DNA of 45,192 nucleotides from contig CAZHAJ010000001.1 in the NCBI GenBank assembly GCA_964530215.1, forward strand, positions 1-45,192, read 5' to 3'. Source of the stretch: an uncultured Peptococcaceae bacterium. Lineage in GTDB: Bacteria > Bacillota > Desulfotomaculia > Desulfotomaculales > Desulfocucumaceae. Positions 2,379 through 40,651 of the stretch are shown piece by piece. Every line of letters starts with the position of its first letter. The first letter of the stretch is position 1. The translations under genes were made by a program, and so were the position numbers. The notes below the pieces were generated by a model. The model did no database searches. It was not told where the DNA came from and saw only the letters and a program-made list of their open reading frames with translations.

Positions 2379-2571
2379 ACAGTTTGTTATCTCTAAGAGG
2401 AAAAAGACTTTGAAGGGGAGCAGTAAGCATTCCAAGTCTATCAGAGAGCCGTCGGTTGGTGTAAGGCGGCAGGCAAGGCTGCAGAAACTCGCCCCGGAGT
2501 CTATCGGGAGAAAATTAGCAGGTATCTCGATACGGTTTGCACCGTTATTGGCGTAGAGAGGGTAATACAAT

Positions 2572-2646
2572 GGGGCTGTGGCGCAGGGGGAGCGCGCTTC
2601 CTTGGCATGGAAGAGGCCGCGGGTTCAATTCCCGCCAGCTCCACCA
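2572..2646 (+). tRNA. tRNA-Ala (anticodon GGC), CCA encoded, embedded in the leuS T-box leader
   Basis: Hand-folded cloverleaf. Acceptor GGGGCTG/CAGCTCC includes the G3:U70 alanine identity pair. U8 and A14 are present. D stem is GCGC/GCGC with G18G19. Anticodon stem is CTTCC/GGAAG, loop TT-GGC-AT. Variable loop is AGGCC. T arm is GCGGG-TTCAATT-CCCGC. Discriminator A73 is followed by CCA. Confidence 0.85.
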
Positions 2647-2673
2647 TTTACCAATCAGGGTGGTAACGCGGGT

Positions 2674-2705
2674 AAAGCCCGTCCCTATCAAGGGACGGGC
2701 TTTTT
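2674..2705 (+). terminator. T-box leader terminator
   Basis: GCCCGTCCCT (2677-2686) pairs with AGGGACGGGC (2691-2700). The loop is 4 nt and the stem is flanked by AAA and TTTTT. Confidence 0.85.
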
Positions 2706-22574: not shown

Positions 22575-23591
<1,017 letters not shown>

Positions 23592-23603: not shown

Positions 23604-23733
23604 CAGAAGTCAGAATTCAGAATCCAGAATTAAGAAGTGACTTTCTGTCAATTGTTGGGGTAGGCCCCACAAATGGAGAGTAAATATGTTAGATAGAGAG
23701 ATTGATGTTTTTGTATATCAATCTCTCTTTTTT
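23604..23733 (+). repeat. Intergenic repeat element, copy A: heptamer array, bulged hairpin and terminator
   Basis: Heptamers CAGAAGT CAGAATT CAGAATC CAGAATT AAGAAGT (23604-23638). The following segment CTGTCAATTGTTGGGGTAGGCCCCACAAATGGAGAGTAAATA is near-identical to 40566-40606. Then comes the terminator hairpin. Confidence 0.7.
23695..23733 (+). terminator. Rho-independent terminator (ilvC / element A)
   Basis: AGAGAGATTGAT (23695-23706) pairs with ATCAATCTCTCT (23717-23728), followed by TTTTT. Confidence 0.75.
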
Positions 23734-23852: not shown

Positions 23853-24911
23853 TCAGTCATTAATTGATACCAATGACTGAATCTCCAGTTCCGGATGACG
23901 TTCCAGTTCCACCAGTTTATCTCCAATTCTAACCACCGGTCTGCATGGATTATTTCTGTTTGACATCACAATTTGACCTTTGCTCCCGTCACTTAAAGCT
24001 ACAAATTCACCTACGTAACATTCTGCAGTGCGATCACAGAAGGAGAAAAGGATCTTTGTGTCCAATAACCCAAGATTTTCATTTTTCAGTACTTCCAGCA
24101 CTTTGAAGGGACATCCTTGTCCTTTTTCGGCCATTTCGCTGGTTAATTTGTCAAAGGTATCTGCCACTGCCACAAGCTTGGCAACTTGTGGTATTTTTTC
24201 GTCCTTGAGGCCATTGGGATAACCTGAGCCATCGATGCGTTCGTGGTGAAGCAGTGCTCCCAGACAGACATCTTCGTGAAAACCGGAGTTTTTTAAAATT
24301 TCATAGCCAATTTTAGTATGGCTCTCATAATCATCCTGTTCTTTAAAAGAACGTTGGATTTTATATAATATATCGGGATTTAATCTTGTTTTACCAACGT
24401 CATGAAAGAGTCCCGCCACAACATAATCTTTGCTAATATCTTCCGGAAAACCAAGCCAACGGCAGATTACTCCACAGATCAGAGATACATTAATACTGTG
24501 GTTATATGTGTTTTTATCAAGTTGAAGTACATGAGCCAGCGTAGGTATAAGATCATAGGCGGCTTTTGGCTTACTTAAAAGAGAGCCGGGAATATCATAT
24601 GCTTCATCGATTGTCACCGGGTTTCCACTGATTACCGCTTTAATCAGGTCTTCTGATTCTTCATTTGTTTTAATGTAAAGGTCTTTTATCTCTAAAATTT
24701 CCTCAGGACTTATAGTGGGCCAGAAATTTGACGTGTCTTCTTGGGGCCTGTCCACTGAGACACTGGAATAACCAAGTCTTTTAATTATTTTTATATTTTC
24801 CTCTGTAAGAACTGCACCACTGGAAAGTAAAAGGATTTTGTTTCTATTGTAAATATCTTCGTTTAAACGCATTCCCGGCTTTAATTCTTCAGTCATCCGG
24901 ACTATAGCCAA
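23853..24911 (-). CDS. HD-GYP domain cyclic-dinucleotide phosphodiesterase with a DUF3391-like N-terminal domain
   Basis: HD motif GLFHDVGK and HHERIDGSGYPNGL (HHExxDGxGYP). The N-terminus L.PGM.L..DI.....LLLSSGAVL....I..L is typical of HD-GYP proteins. TTG start with a GGGGGGT RBS, 12 nt after the DGQHR gene stop. Confidence 0.85.
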   Translation of the reverse strand: MAIVRMTEELKPGMRLNEDIYNRNKILLLSSGAVLTEENIKIIKRLGYSSVSVDRPQEDTSNFWPTISPEEILEIKDLYIKTNEESEDLIKAVISGNPVTIDEAYDIPGSLLSKPKAAYDLIPTLAHVLQLDKNTYNHSINVSLICGVICRWLGFPEDISKDYVVAGLFHDVGKTRLNPDILYKIQRSFKEQDDYESHTKIGYEILKNSGFHEDVCLGALLHHERIDGSGYPNGLKDEKIPQVAKLVAVADTFDKLTSEMAEKGQGCPFKVLEVLKNENLGLLDTKILFSFCDRTAECYVGEFVALSDGSKGQIVMSNRNNPCRPVVRIGDKLVELERHPELEIQSLVSIND

Positions 24912-24923
24912 TATATACCCCCC

Positions 24924-26006
24924 CTATTCTTTAAAGTTAAACTCATTTTCTAATACAGAAACAACTAAATGTTCAATCTTATCTGCAGTGGCTTCGACGT
25001 TGGGATAAAATTCATGGGATAAATTTTCATTTCTAATTTTTAAACTTTTTTTAACTTTTTCAAATATATCCATAAAAAATTCCTGCTTTAAAGACTTGTT
25101 CTGTTCCCCCAGTTGGTGCATTTTAGGGAAAGCCTGCATTATTCCGACATATCCAACGGTATTGGATAAAACGGATTGCTTTGGATTATCCCATTCTTCC
25201 GGGAAAACAGCTTTGATAGCGTTAAACAGGTTAAAGAGAATTTTGTAAATATATTCATCTTTTTCAGCTATGAAGTAACGCCTCAAAGGAAGAGACGGGT
25301 CTTCCTTAAGAGGAGTGTTCCTTTTTATCTTCATCATGTCAGTCTCGGGATCATTGGATATGAGAGAGATAAGATGTTGTGCAAATAGCCCTTGGGAAAG
25401 CTTTGAAAGTTTTCCTTCTCTGCTGCCCAGCATTTTTAGCCTCTTATAAAAAGCTGATTTTTCGTCCGCATTAAGCAATCGGGCTATATGATGACAGGTC
25501 TTTTGGGGGCTTCTCTTATCTGAGAGATTAAAGAGTTTATACAATAATGACATAGAGAATTGGGTTTGCTTACTGTTGATAATGGAAAATACATATGCCT
25601 TCTCTTCTTCGGTTAATCCAAACATAAAAACCACAGGCATTACAAAGTCATCAACATGCTCGGACTCTTTAATACCCAAAAGTCTGTGCTGTCCGTCAAT
25701 CACTTCACCGATCACTTTCCCGTCGTCTATTTCCAGTATGTTGTTTTCGAAAAGAAAGCTGGAGATATCTTCGGTTACAGCTATAATTATTGGGGTGGGA
25801 AAGGTTGCGTCCGGGTCTGCACAGTAGATGGAAATATCATGGACACATTTAGATGATCCATTTGAATAGTTACAGTCTGAATCAAACTGTCTCCTAGAAA
25901 AATTTGATATTTCAGCTATTCTTAATATGGTTCTGGCTTCCAGTGCACTGATATAGAAAGTGCCTATGGGCTGAGTTACTCTTATAAAAGGAATTAGTTT
26001 TTTCAA
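24924..26006 (-). CDS. DGQHR-domain protein (DndB-like, ParB/Srx nuclease superfamily)
   Basis: 360 aa with the exact DGQHR motif (VIDGQHRLLGI), preceded by TFPTPIIIAV and an N-terminal QPIGTFYISAL strand, as in the DndB/DGQHR family. The TTG start overlaps the upstream stop (TTGA). Confidence 0.75.
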   Translation of the reverse strand: MKKLIPFIRVTQPIGTFYISALEARTILRIAEISNFSRRQFDSDCNYSNGSSKCVHDISIYCADPDATFPTPIIIAVTEDISSFLFENNILEIDDGKVIGEVIDGQHRLLGIKESEHVDDFVMPVVFMFGLTEEEKAYVFSIINSKQTQFSMSLLYKLFNLSDKRSPQKTCHHIARLLNADEKSAFYKRLKMLGSREGKLSKLSQGLFAQHLISLISNDPETDMMKIKRNTPLKEDPSLPLRRYFIAEKDEYIYKILFNLFNAIKAVFPEEWDNPKQSVLSNTVGYVGIMQAFPKMHQLGEQNKSLKQEFFMDIFEKVKKSLKIRNENLSHEFYPNVEATADKIEHLVVSVLENEFNFKE

Positions 26007-26656
26007 ATTTCTATGCCTCCTTCGATAACGTTATCAATATTACTGGCATTAACCTTCAATTTGTTTACGTTTTTATTATCTGCTAAATGAAAAAAATCCA
26101 TTTCGTGTTTATCAAGGTTTTTAACTGCAAAAATATAAATACTTAAAGCAATGGACAGTAAGTAAAAAATAATCTGAATATATCCGTCAGTTTTACTGTA
26201 TACGTGTGAGGTTAAATTACCTTTGAAAATAGTAATTGCATACTCAGCAGACATAAATATAACCAGTATAAAAGCCAAAATCCATGAACCTATCTGATAT
26301 CTTTTAAATAAAGTTGTTTCATTGCTGTTTAGGTATTGGGTAAATCCGTCATAAAGGGCTATTCCCAATATTGAAATTGAGAAAATATAGAAGTTTCCGT
26401 TTACCAGATTGGTGAAAATGTTTTTTTCCAAACCGATATTGTAGTTGACAAGTAATGACAGGATAATTCCAAACTGACCAATAACAATTACCACTGCCAC
26501 CCAAAGTAAAAAAGTGAAGGACTCCTTTTTAATAACTTGATACGGACTGAAAACATAGAACAATATTCTTAGAGTAAATCTCTTAATATCCCTTAAAAAA
26601 TTAACTATAAAAATAAAAGGCCATGCTAACATTCCTAAAAAGCTTTTTGATTTCAT
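26003..26656 (-). CDS. Hypothetical integral membrane protein (about 5 TM) with a ~40-aa soluble tail
   Basis: 217 aa. Hydrophobic segments lie at about residues 6-22, 47-70, 87-105, 122-144 and 158-178. RBS is GGAGG. I recognise no family. The gene is visibly AT-rich. Confidence 0.7.
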   Translation of the reverse strand: MKSKSFLGMLAWPFIFIVNFLRDIKRFTLRILFYVFSPYQVIKKESFTFLLWVAVVIVIGQFGIILSLLVNYNIGLEKNIFTNLVNGNFYIFSISILGIALYDGFTQYLNSNETTLFKRYQIGSWILAFILVIFMSAEYAITIFKGNLTSHVYSKTDGYIQIIFYLLSIALSIYIFAVKNLDKHEMDFFHLADNKNVNKLKVNASNIDNVIEGGIEI

Positions 26657-26869
26657 ATAAACCTCCGGTATTTTTGAAGATTATATTAAAGGTAATTATA
26701 CCATTGTCAGAGCATTATATACAGTCTAATAAATCTATACAACACAGGTAATAGGTTGTATTTATAATACTTCTAATTATTACTGAACTCTATAGGCCTG
26801 TAGTCTTAATTTACAGATTCTCTGTTCTTCAGGCGGAGTCTTTTGTGCTTAAAGATTAATTTAAAAAAA

Positions 26870-28381
26870 TTAATCTGTTTTACGGTACTGAAGGGCTTCG
26901 GCTAAATGTTCTATTTTTACATTTTCACTTTGATTTAGATCAGCGATGGTTCGAGCGATCTTTAAAACCTTATTATGAGAACGGGCACTCATTTTTAATT
27001 GTTTAAATGAAGATTTTAGCAGGCTTTTTGCTTCATTGGTAAGATTGCAATATTTCTGAATATCATCTCCGTTCATATGGGCATTGCACCGAATGTGGGA
27101 GCCGGCAAACCTCTCAGTCTGTAATTTTCGTGCTTGTAACACCCTTTTCTTAACAGCCTCAGACCCTTCTGAAGGAAGGGCTTTGCTTAATTCGTCATAA
27201 GACAAAGGAGGTACATTTATCACAATATCAATGCGGTCTAAAATGGGCCCAGAAATTTTTCCCATGTATTTGGAAATTTGCAAAGGAGTGCATTGGCAAT
27301 TTTTAAGAGGGTCTCCGTAATAGCCGCAAGGACAGGGGTTACATGCCCCCACCAAAGTAACTCTGGCAGGGAAGGTGACGGATGCATGGACGCGGGTAAT
27401 GGTTATCACCCCATCCTCTAAGGGTTGCCTTAATGCTTCTAGGCAGTTTTTATTAAACTCGGGCATTTCATCTAAAAATAAAATTCCGTTGTGGGCAAGG
27501 CTTATCTCACCCGGGCGGGGTATCTTACCTCCCCCCACCAGGGAAACGGAAGATGCGCTGTGGTGCGGTGCCCGAAATGGACGATTGCTTATAAAGCCAG
27601 ATTGAAGGAGGCCGGTAAGGCTGTATATTTTTGTGGTTTCAAGAGCTTCCTCGAAAACCATATCGGGCAATATTCCGGTTAAGCAACGAGCTAGCATGGT
27701 CTTTCCGGATCCGGGACTGCCCACCATCAGTAGATTATGACTGCCGGCTGCAGTCACTTCCAAAGCTCTTCGGGCTGCCATTTGTCCGCGGACTGTGGAT
27801 AAATCGATGGAAATTTCCCCGTTTGGGTTTGAAGTTTTTTTAGGCTCGGATTTATGCGGGGGGATGTTTGTTTCTCCTTTTAGAAAGCTGACCAGCTGAT
27901 ATAGCGAGGAGATGGGAAAAACCTCTGATTTAATAGATAAAGCTGCCTCATCGGCATTTTCTGAAGGCACTACAACCGATACCTGACCGCTTTCATATGC
28001 AGCTATTACATTGGGAAGAACTCCGTTTACACCCCTTACTCCTCCGTTTAACGATAGCTCCCCGATAAAGACATACCTGCTACACACCAACGGATCCAAT
28101 TGGTCGGTGGCTGCAAGAATGCCTACAGCAATGGCAAGGTCGTACATAGAGCCTTCTTTTTTTATATCAGCTGGTGCCAGATTAACTGTTATTCTTTTCA
28201 GAGGGAATTCAAAATCTGAGTTTCTGATGGCTGATCTTACTCTTTCCCGGGATTCCTTCACCGATACATCGGGAAGTCCTACAAGATCAAAACAAGGCAA
28301 CCCATTGGAGACGTCAACTTCTACTTTAATTAAGTTTCCCTCTAATCCGTTAAGGGCTGTGCTTTGGGTTATTGCAAGCAA
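26870..28381 (-). CDS. comM: YifB/ComM family Mg-chelatase-like ATPase
   Basis: Lon-protease-like N-domain, Walker A GSPGSGKT, FLDE Walker B and a C-terminal Mg-chelatase domain. I trimmed the start to TTG 28381 (AAAGAGGT RBS 7 nt upstream, giving MLAITQS...). The track ORF extends to 28468. Confidence 0.9.
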   Translation of the reverse strand: MLAITQSTALNGLEGNLIKVEVDVSNGLPCFDLVGLPDVSVKESRERVRSAIRNSDFEFPLKRITVNLAPADIKKEGSMYDLAIAVGILAATDQLDPLVCSRYVFIGELSLNGGVRGVNGVLPNVIAAYESGQVSVVVPSENADEAALSIKSEVFPISSLYQLVSFLKGETNIPPHKSEPKKTSNPNGEISIDLSTVRGQMAARRALEVTAAGSHNLLMVGSPGSGKTMLARCLTGILPDMVFEEALETTKIYSLTGLLQSGFISNRPFRAPHHSASSVSLVGGGKIPRPGEISLAHNGILFLDEMPEFNKNCLEALRQPLEDGVITITRVHASVTFPARVTLVGACNPCPCGYYGDPLKNCQCTPLQISKYMGKISGPILDRIDIVINVPPLSYDELSKALPSEGSEAVKKRVLQARKLQTERFAGSHIRCNAHMNGDDIQKYCNLTNEAKSLLKSSFKQLKMSARSHNKVLKIARTIADLNQSENVKIEHLAEALQYRKTD

Positions 28382-28584
28382 ATATCTGACCTCTTTGTTA
28401 AAATTAGCCGTAAAATATCTGGGCTTGCAACATAATTCTGCATAATGATAAAAGAACCTGCAGTGCAAGGTGCTAAAGTACCAAAAGGCTATAAAAAAAT
28501 GCTGTTTGGTGCTTATTTTGGTTTGAAACTGTACAAACTTTTGGAACTTTGCATTTTATGGTGAGTCATTTATGTTATGGTTAT

Positions 28585-39069: not shown

Positions 39070-39316
39070 TTTTAGAAAAGCAGGTTACCCTGCGGTGTTC
39101 GTATAAGCTTGGGAGTTTAAAACCAACACTTAAACATTGGGAGTCTAACTCTGGTTGTGGCATGTAAGCCTTTTTTGGTAACATAAAGCAGTCAGGAGGA
39201 CACCCACCTATTTTAGAATAGGTTATAAACTTTTAGTTTTTACGGCACGTGTGGGGTGTTATGCTTGGAGCGCAAAACTATCGATCTTATGTGTTAAGGT
39301 CGATAGTTATTATTTT
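39070..39316 (+). ncRNA. Candidate structured non-coding RNA in the aspS-tcdA spacer (possible 6S RNA by synteny; fold not confirmed)
   Basis: A 375-nt ORF-free spacer ending in a good terminator. Long-range pairing AGTTTAAAACC (39114-39124) with GGTTATAAACT (39221-39231). Direct repeat GGTGTT..AT..GCTTGG.AG at 39095-39116 and 39254-39270. Local hairpin CCTATT-TTAG-AATAGG. Confidence 0.25.
39276..39316 (+). terminator. Rho-independent terminator
   Basis: AACTATCGA(T)C (39276-39286) pairs with GTCGATAGTT (39299-39308), followed by ATTATTTT. Confidence 0.65.
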
Positions 39317-40503: not shown

Positions 40504-40651
40504 GCCCCATAAAGAGTAATACAGAATCCAGAAGTCAGAATCCAGAATTTTAGGAAATGGTCCTCTGTCAATTGTAGGGGTAGACCCCATAATGGGAGAG
40601 TAAATAGATTAAATTGGGTGATTGATATTTAAGTATCAGTCACCCTTTTTT
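40501..40651 (+). repeat. Intergenic repeat element, copy B: partial unit, heptamer array, bulged hairpin and terminator
   Basis: TAGGCCCCATAAAGAGTAATA (40501-40521) is a partial unit overlapping the trxA stop. Heptamers are CAGAATC CAGAAGT CAGAATC CAGAATT (40522-40549). CTGTCAATTGTAGGGGTAGACCCCATAATGGGAGAGTAAATA follows, then the terminator. Confidence 0.7.
40616..40651 (+). terminator. Rho-independent terminator (trxA / element B)
   Basis: GGGTGATTGATA pairs with TATCAGTCACCC (one G-U pair), followed by TTTTTT. Confidence 0.75.

Follow-up and report, generated by a model that had tools for sequence, protein, structure and literature searches.

Relatives of the ParB/Srx fold, among them DndB, DpdB and the DUF262 domain of DndI, SspE and GmrSD, bind or hydrolyse nucleoside triphosphates (NTPs) and engage DNA, and enzymes of the GmrSD type function as stand-alone units. 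To our knowledge, DGQHR/ParB-fold proteins have so far been encountered in DNA-modification systems (DndB, DpdB) or in nuclease fusions (DndI, SspE, GmrSD). The window analysed here is a stretch of 45,192 nucleotides (nt) from an uncultured Peptococcaceae bacterium (GenBank assembly GCA_964530215.1, contig CAZHAJ010000001.1), in which a gene for a 360-amino acid (aa) DGQHR protein overlaps the end of a gene for a 217-aa polytopic membrane protein (transmembrane, TM). An original prediction had grouped these two genes with a third, coding for an HD-GYP protein, as an accessory three-gene operon. Comparison of the locus with its relatives showed that the TM gene and the DGQHR gene make up a two-gene cassette, with obligate pairing, translational coupling, co-divergence and horizontal spread.

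When one genome for each GTDB species was scanned by pattern, at least 362 loci with relatives of the DGQHR protein were recovered, and 80 of these were kept for analysis. An open reading frame (ORF) on the same strand abutted the DGQHR start in all 72 loci with an intact gene and upstream room, which represented about ten phyla. The abutting ORFs mostly coded for polytopic proteins of 170-230 aa, and the two genes overlapped in 62 of the 72 loci, by 4 nt in 51 and by 1 nt in 11. In an all-against-all BLAST comparison, 65 upstream proteins and that of the window formed one family (a 66-member cluster), while the next most common neighbour family was present at 14 loci at most. The window pair belongs to this set, having the TTGA overlap, the motifs of the TM family and its tail. 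The pairwise identities of the TM and DGQHR proteins were correlated (Mantel r 0.83, with 0 of 2000 permutations as high), the TM partner diverging about twice as fast (mean identity 25% vs 46% for DGQHR). The reverse test gave the same pairing: four of four remote TM homologues, found independently of DGQHR, were encoded directly upstream of a DndB-family gene. The coupled pair that the original prediction had read at one locus is therefore co-conserved elsewhere.

The hosts of these relatives included Bacillota, Bacteroidota, Pseudomonadota, Campylobacterota, Planctomycetota, Verrucomicrobiota, Spirochaetota, Chlorobi/Ignavibacteria and Cyanobacteria, together with a bacterium of the Candidate Phyla Radiation (CPR) and the archaeon Methanolobus. 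A weak DGQHR match (23% identity) in an Aenigmatarchaeota locus (L080) was without an abutting upstream gene. Most relatives were 42-49% identical to the query whatever their phylum, and proteins of Planctomycetes, Bacteroidota, Campylobacterota and Methanolobus were 45-49% identical to it. This independence of identity from phylum argues for horizontal spread. The coupling of the two genes held down to about 28% DGQHR identity, on plasmids and on viral/prophage contigs. Among the IMG/VR viral/prophage contigs, a few carried close DGQHR copies (43-46%) and many carried distant ones, of which the 28-35% relatives were coupled. On an Acinetobacter plasmid, a distant coupled copy adjoined a BglII-type restriction-modification (R-M) system. 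Even distant DGQHR relatives were present on only 16 of 72,556 plasmids, and 50,697 GenBank phage records gave no match.

At DGQHR identities of 27% or less, the IMG/VR contigs L118-L129 had, in place of the membrane gene, an overlapping upstream gene whose soluble product measures about 290 aa and has the conserved C-terminus ...GAVA(K/R)DP... This change of partner below about 27% identity marks the edge of the TM-coupled clade. The soluble protein and its DGQHR neighbour on viral contigs may be a DpdA-DpdB-like pairing.

The original prediction had placed three minus-strand ORFs between comM and ilvC, and their positions were confirmed in the sequence of the window. The features of the locus are as follows:

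26870-28468, comM (Mg_chelatase/ChlI domains)
26657-26869, minus strand, AT-rich spacer between comM and the TM gene, likely promoter region (G+C content, GC, 0.29-0.30)
26003-26656, minus strand, gene for the membrane (TM) protein, 217 aa, upstream member of the pair (ORF list)
26003-26006, minus strand, TTGA stop/start overlap of the TM and DGQHR genes (read from the sequence)
24924-26006, minus strand, gene for the DGQHR protein, 360 aa (ORF list; TIGR03187 match)
23853-24911, minus strand, gene of the HD-GYP phosphodiesterase type, 352 aa (ORF list; HD_5 match)
22599-23591, ilvC (KARI_N/KARI_C domains)

The TGA stop of the TM gene (26005-26003) and the TTG start of the DGQHR gene (26006-26004) share the letters TTGA, and a GGAGG at 26020-26016 lies nine bases 5' of this overlap. 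The TTG start of the HD-GYP gene is preceded by a G-rich spacer of 12 nt (24923-24912). Both junctions were as originally described. The ribosome-binding site (RBS) of the TM gene is a GGAGG at 26666-26662, in the spacer to comM. As for the promoter candidates of the original prediction in this spacer, the extended -10-like TGGTATAAT is present (26703-26695) and a promoter scan gave a further candidate, CTGACA-16-TAATAT (26710-26683), but promoter-like sites were no denser in the region than in shuffled sequence (10 observed vs 12.0 +/- 3.9 expected). No RNA element was matched above threshold within the three-gene locus.

The low GC of the TM gene was borne out by comparison with the 35 other ORFs of the window (GC mean 0.421, standard deviation 0.028; GC at third codon positions, GC3, mean 0.401, standard deviation 0.040). 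The TM gene had a GC of 0.295 and a GC3 of 0.303 (z = -2.5), the DGQHR gene 0.367 and 0.368 (z = -0.8), and the HD-GYP gene 0.397 and 0.346 (z = -1.4). No dnd, dpd or R-M gene was found in the whole window, so that the module stands alone there, as had been proposed. The sole PADLOC matches were a housekeeping IscS/NifS-type desulfurase adjoining NifU and a ThiF-type protein.

The signatures of the DGQHR domain are the DGQHR pentapeptide, an FxxxN motif and a QR pair (PMC4619093). In the window protein, IDGQHR occupies residues 103-108, and both DGQHR (104-108) and F140xxxN144, which are invariant across the family, are present. The protein passed the general DGQHR model TIGR03187 (138.2 bits vs a cutoff of 58.85), and was slightly under the cutoff of PF14072 (28.7 vs 29.1 bits). 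It failed the DpdB equivalog NF041060 (65.7 vs 300 bits) and had no match to the DndB equivalog TIGR03233 at E <= 0.1. After the general domain model, the top specific NCBIfam model was TIGR04172 ('DNA phosphorothioation-associated DGQHR protein 1'), which aligned over residues 5-334 and was also failed (133 bits vs a cutoff of 450). PADLOC matched the protein only with DpdB models (E = 2.6e-20), which reflects the common domain. On these scores, the window protein is assigned to a clade separate from DndB, DpdB and TIGR04172.

With DndB and DpdB, the window protein has in common the TIGR03187 domain, the DGQHR and FxxxN motifs and a ParB/Srx-like N-domain, and part of the paired family is found near DNA-modification genes. 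It differs in that the window has neither dndCDE nor dpdA nor a nearby gene resembling tRNA-guanine transglycosylase (TGT), and in that the paired DGQHR protein is always encoded behind a coupled membrane gene. TIGR04172 proteins are closer to it in arrangement: on the Rhizobium plasmid pRphaN831b, a true member beside dndC/dndD has an overlapping upstream gene for a 4-TM protein. The window protein, however, is only about 26% identical to true members, and the window lacks dnd genes. The window protein shares with DndI, SspE and GmrSD a ParB-fold domain of the NTPase type that carries DGQxR. In contrast to these, the motif of the window protein is DGQHR rather than DGQQR, Pfam gave no DUF262 or DUF1524/HNH match, no nuclease motif was identified, and a separate membrane partner is present instead of a fused nuclease.

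The AlphaFold2 model of the DGQHR protein, built on 77 homologues, had a mean confidence score (pLDDT) of 84. In a Foldseek search of the PDB, the top matches were ParB (7bm8, probability 0.97), KorB, Spo0J, PadC and sulfiredoxin (Srx), with weak E-values (>= 0.026) and covering the N-domain only. Matches to viral proteins reached E = 5.7e-8 and included DndB-like, DUF262 and GmrSD-N proteins. Because of these two sets of matches, the N-domain is modelled as a fold of the ParB/Srx type, in agreement with the original assignment of the 360-aa protein. The C-terminal region was all-helical in the model. A PDB sequence search with the family profile found no solved relative, giving only chance matches to PsaD, and neither 9JFL nor 7DRS matched the family at E <= 1. 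No His-Me finger or other nuclease was among the fold matches, and the protein gave no sign of a helix-turn-helix (HTH) or another domain for sequence-specific DNA binding. Two further ideas were considered. DndB has been stated to combine ParB and HEPN (PMC3632139), and an invariant R165-x6-H172 had suggested HEPN in the C-terminal half here as well; no HEPN or other fold match was obtained and the domain is not claimed. A His-Me/HNH nuclease in the hairpin-helix at residues 189-213 was ruled out by inspection, since there is no catalytic His.

As to the original count of about five TM helices in the upstream protein, the conserved core of the family has four, and the higher count arose from a hydrophobic N-terminal extension specific to the window clade. 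Family motifs are GQxGI in helix 1, NGxFY(T/I)FSI in helix 2 and the near-invariant Q161 and Y174 in helix 4, followed by a C-terminal tail of about 45 residues, which in the window ends ...NVIEGGIEI. The K+R count is 6.1 at the N-terminus, 1.2, 3.7 and 1.3 in the successive loops and 6.8 in the tail, which by the positive-inside rule indicates an N-in/C-in topology with a cytoplasmic tail. The tail is net acidic. Pfam, NCBIfam and PADLOC contained no family for the TM protein, whether it was searched alone or as 64 aligned members. A SLATT effector was considered and rejected, as SLATT_5 scored 14.7 against 29.5 bits with the window protein only and the 64 aligned members gave no SLATT match. 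The AlphaFold2 model of the TM protein was helical (pLDDT 72.5). Word-indexed homologue searches gave 8 and then 23 relatives, and the family was recovered by way of gene neighbourhood and an exhaustive profile search. The latter yielded 280 representative clusters, all of stand-alone proteins of about 140-275 aa.

Three gammaproteobacterial dnd loci had a different upstream protein, with two TM helices and a soluble domain. These alternative partners end in a D-DY...EN-D...DG--KL tail as in the TM family, and when the tail profile was searched against 821 neighbour proteins they were the three best non-family matches. The acidic tail is taken as the likely contact or docking site for the DGQHR protein.

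Comparison with Kiwa (the 4-TM KwaA and KwaB), which the original prediction had drawn, was valid for architecture only, that is, a small polytopic membrane protein with a cytoplasmic DNA-binding partner. Zorya (ZorAB and ZorD) is similar in its membrane logic, and one variant operon described below adds a ZorD/DpdE-like SNF2 helicase. The KwaA, KwaB, ZorA, ZorB and ZorC models of PADLOC had no match to the TM protein (at E <= 1) or the DGQHR protein, and no Kiwa or Zorya structure was among the fold matches of the two models. Noc, a CTP-dependent nucleoid occlusion protein of the ParB family, couples its DNA binding to the membrane through its nucleotide state (bioRxiv 10.1101/2025.10.10.680097), and it provides a precedent for a ParB-fold switch acting at the membrane. 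Noc is, however, a housekeeping ParB-like HTH protein with its own amphipathic helix, whereas in the window the genes are accessory and the membrane component is a separate integral protein.

The window copy of the DGQHR protein has a peculiarity that is shared with its nearest relatives. Of 77 family members, 73 show the Q-R of the consensus G[VI]QRxxSxxR[IV]xEI and 70 its later R. In the window protein the QR pair is Y47-S48, and R54 is also lost. In the window and in L001, L002, L081 and L082, the segment (residues 44-57) reads C-x-Y-[ST]-x-x-S-x-K-C-V instead, and all five keep both cysteines. In ParB, Box I is a base-contacting motif upstream of the GxxR Box II (bioRxiv 10.1101/2025.10.10.680097), and by its position the QR segment would correspond to Box I. 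The ratio of non-synonymous to synonymous divergence (dN/dS) within the window clade was 0.05-0.09 for the TM and DGQHR genes where dS was unsaturated, the DGQHR gene lying at about 0.05, so both genes are maintained by purifying selection, and decay to a pseudogene was excluded as the cause of the QR loss. Nor does the change follow the presence of the HD-GYP gene, as L001 and L082 have the remodelled protein without it. Nucleotide handling by the copies of this clade may differ from that of the remaining family, and the remodelled pocket segment might mark a change of ligand.

The gene neighbourhoods of the pair were examined within six gene calls at 70 loci. Recurrent defence-type families were found near the pair at 37 of 70 loci, and about three more had type II cytosine methyltransferases (about 40 of 70 in all), in support of the original interpretation. 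D12 or N6_N4 DNA methyltransferases were present at 17 loci. Other recurring neighbours were DUF6996/6997, Mrr_cat, PLD and ResIII helicases, MORC-like HATPase_c_3, DndC, DndD, DndE and DndA. Only 7 of the 70 loci were dnd-linked, and the homologues are therefore not confined to dnd clusters.

Three loci (L024, L040 and L056) had the pair after dptH, in the same orientation and overlapping or abutting; the DptH of L024 scored 1385 bits with TIGR03237. In ProPhylo, a 'DGQHR domain protein' had already been placed between DptH and DptE (PMC3226654). The DndI of Salmonella joins a DUF262 (DGQQR) ATPase and an HNH nickase in one protein; it recognises phosphorothioate, restricts phage DNA that lacks the modification, and is co-transcribed after dndFGH (PMC11662687). 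The pair thus occupies, in these three loci, the slot of DndI. The paired proteins of the dnd-linked L024 and L040 scored 174 and 156 bits with TIGR04172, below 450. L040 retains a true DndB (TIGR03233, 410 bits vs a cutoff of 328) beside the paired protein, which indicates that the latter is no substitute for DndB.

Two further arrangements were observed around the pair. In a six-gene operon (L092 3196-8783, L093 5001-10591 and L096 1511-7092), the order was the TM protein, a 395-aa DGQHR protein, a 342-aa ParB_N protein, a 146-aa protein, a 494-aa SNF2 helicase and a protein of about 333 aa. The helicase was ZorD/DpdE-like, matching the ZorD model over the helicase region (E = 4e-45), and the 342-aa protein gave weak matches to the PD-Lambda-5_A and PDC-M38A models; no complete PADLOC system was matched by the operon. 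At L013 (5106-7397), L055 and L095 (2432-4735), a second DGQHR protein of about 765 aa was encoded beside the pair. It was accompanied by a MORC-like HATPase_c_3 protein and by one of 528 aa, bearing CxxxCxxC, which had no Pfam or NCBIfam match. This set may be another multi-gene system.

The reading that we favour, at somewhat better than an even chance, is that the autonomous and horizontally mobile cassette is a defence-type module which is tethered to the membrane and senses DNA in a nucleotide-dependent way. The DGQHR protein would dock on the acidic cytoplasmic tail of the N-in/C-in four-helix membrane protein. On sensing foreign or wrongly modified DNA, it would gate the membrane partner, and depolarisation would bring about abortive infection; alternatively, DNA might be kept at the membrane, where nucleases or helicases encoded nearby would act on it. 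In the window, the cassette lies alone in the variable comM-ilvC gap of a Peptococcaceae-type genome.

Several observations weigh against this defence reading. The defence role is one that we infer from gene neighbourhood, its sole basis, and the counts came from crude ORF calls without a matched genomic control. About 30 of the 70 loci, that of the window included, had no recognised defence gene nearby. The helical C-terminal half of the DGQHR protein had no structural or family match, and the fold search with the TM model returned generic helical bundles only, with no PDB fold match; with both parts unmatched, no effector chemistry was identified. As the QR pair and R54 are lost in the window clade, the NTPase activity proposed for the family may not transfer to it. 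The tail-profile E-values of the three 2-TM partners were 5.6e-4, 0.06 and 0.22, and only the first is significant alone. The terminal tail codons also carry the RBS of the overlapping DGQHR gene, and part of the conservation seen in the final tail residues (G at -4) may be due to a Shine-Dalgarno constraint instead of protein function.

The pair often adjoins modification genes, and its TIGR03187 domain is shared with DndB, which has been reported to repress the dnd operon in a way that ATP modulates (PMC4507180). These observations would also fit a membrane-controlled regulator, that is, a DndB-like NTP-responsive repressor that the TM protein sequesters and releases in the manner of an anti-sigma factor and that controls R-M, Dnd or HD-GYP genes. 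Such a role is judged to be unlikely. The neighbouring genes are not conserved, so the pair has no common regulatory target. The dnd loci with the pair keep a true DndB, as the scores of L040 show, and there the pair extends the restriction operon, behind dptH, rather than the one for modification. The DGQHR protein, moreover, lacks a detectable HTH or other sequence-specific DNA-binding domain.

The locus is accessory, as originally proposed, for the comM-ilvC gap differs among close relatives and the pair of L082 is located at another chromosomal site, between ArsB/CitMHS-type and TerC-type genes. The low GC3 of the TM gene fits this status. In L001, the pair is 81% identical and at the same site, and the DGQHR gene directly abuts ilvC. 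In L001 (667-7109), all that is present of comM is its 3' part (2256-2713), with a gene for a large serine recombinase ahead of it, and the gap before the pair holds genes for RtcB, an RNase_T-like protein of 424 aa and an HSDR_N-type nuclease of 301 aa. This arrangement suggests an element integrated at comM and a variable hotspot. From the differences of L001 and L082, it follows that the comM-ilvC gap is variable, that the pair moves as a unit of 1.7 kb and that the HD-GYP gene is a local neighbour.

The serine recombinase beside the islet in L001, the ParB/Srx fold and the copies on IMG/VR viral/prophage contigs and, for distant ones, on plasmids are features that a function for the mobile element itself would account for, the pair being then a membrane-anchored ParB-like protein for partition, exclusion or Osa-like fertility inhibition of an integrated element. 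We consider this very unlikely, given the absence of matches in the GenBank phage records and the rarity of even distant relatives on plasmids. Neither the window nor most of the loci had parA, parS-like repeats, an integrase or conjugation genes, and the cassette is merely 1.7 kb, inserted among housekeeping genes.

The third gene codes, from its domain scores and motifs, for what is predicted to be an ordinary HD-GYP-type HD-domain protein, a phosphodiesterase (HD_5 75.1 vs 27.2 bits; HD 65.1 vs 22 bits), with FHD and HHERIDGSGYP fitting the HHExxDGxGYP signature. Downstream of the pair, an HD-GYP homologue was seen at just two other loci, L002 and L081, both from close Peptococcaceae relatives whose comM...ilvC synteny is that of the window. 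It was missing from L001, from L082 (pair 70% identical, other site), from the other 76 GTDB loci with callable neighbours and from the four loci found via the TM protein. A metagenome scan with the HD-GYP protein recovered only relatives of 28-30% identity. It is hardly credible that the three genes are one signalling or defence operon in which the HD-GYP protein is integral, for instance by resetting a cyclic-nucleotide signal of the pair: co-transcription is likely here, as only 12 nt and no terminator separate the DGQHR and HD-GYP genes, three related genomes (those of the window, L002 and L081) retain the arrangement, and the clade has a remodelled nucleotide-pocket-like segment, but two members of this clade have the segment without the HD-GYP gene, the module is without a cyclase or other signal-generating enzyme, and in the same genomes the dN of the HD-GYP gene (0.24-0.29) exceeds that of the pair (0.12-0.17). 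On its presence and absence among loci, the HD-GYP protein was rejected as a system component. The three-gene functional unit of the original prediction was thereby abandoned, the evidence did not support its cyclic-nucleotide link, and its alternative, an unrelated passenger, is the better reading. The HD-GYP gene is a lineage-specific neighbour, probably co-transcribed, outside the conserved module.

The repeat that had been noted adjacent to the islet is real, an intergenic direct repeat of 87 nt with 77% identity between its two copies (23630-23716 and 40550-40636). The first copy sits in the spacer between ilvC and the HD-GYP gene and overlaps a terminator-like hairpin (23695-23728, 14-bp stem). 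The single Rfam match of the repeat was to HrrF, below threshold (E = 0.024). The remainder of the window consists of housekeeping genes (nuo, aminoacyl-tRNA synthetases, relA, recJ, iscS/nifU and others). Other features observed in it were:

2401-2689, plus strand, T-box leader (RF00230, 131.9 bits)
2572-2646, insert of the T-box leader, in which 80 nt replace a 7-nt loop
2750-5230, ORF after the T-box leader, 826 aa, an apparent class I synthetase with a leucyl-tRNA synthetase (LeuRS) editing domain
39084-39261, plus strand, 6S RNA gene (RF00013, 96.6 bits)

The T-box insert is a full tRNA-like cloverleaf ending in CCA, which ARAGORN called as tRNA-Ala(GGC) and which scored 66.9 bits with the Rfam tRNA model. 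It is unusual for a T-box leader to contain a tRNA.

No description of the TM and DGQHR pair was found in the open-access literature (papers on DGQHR, the reappraisals of Dnd and BREX by the Aravind group and a survey of the ParB fold), and the pair is not covered as a system by Pfam, NCBIfam or PADLOC-2023. It is possible, and proposed here only tentatively, that the pair is a widespread and undescribed membrane-coupled immune module for DNA sensing, occurring alone, after DptFGH in place of DndI, or before SNF2-helicase operons, in which a ParB-fold switch would report foreign or wrongly modified DNA to a membrane effector. That the DGQHR clade invariably comes with its own dedicated, coupled membrane protein suggests that a known sensor fold is wired here to another kind of output. 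The clade comprises more than 360 species representatives, as a lower bound, and its partner is a new uncharacterised membrane family of about 280 representative clusters with no Pfam entry. If the pair alone protects, it would be a compact new defence system and would give a handle on how nucleotide switches of the ParB type are wired to membranes. If it is not protective, the two genes, now annotated as 'hypothetical protein' and 'DGQHR domain-containing protein', are still a cleanly defined two-gene family.

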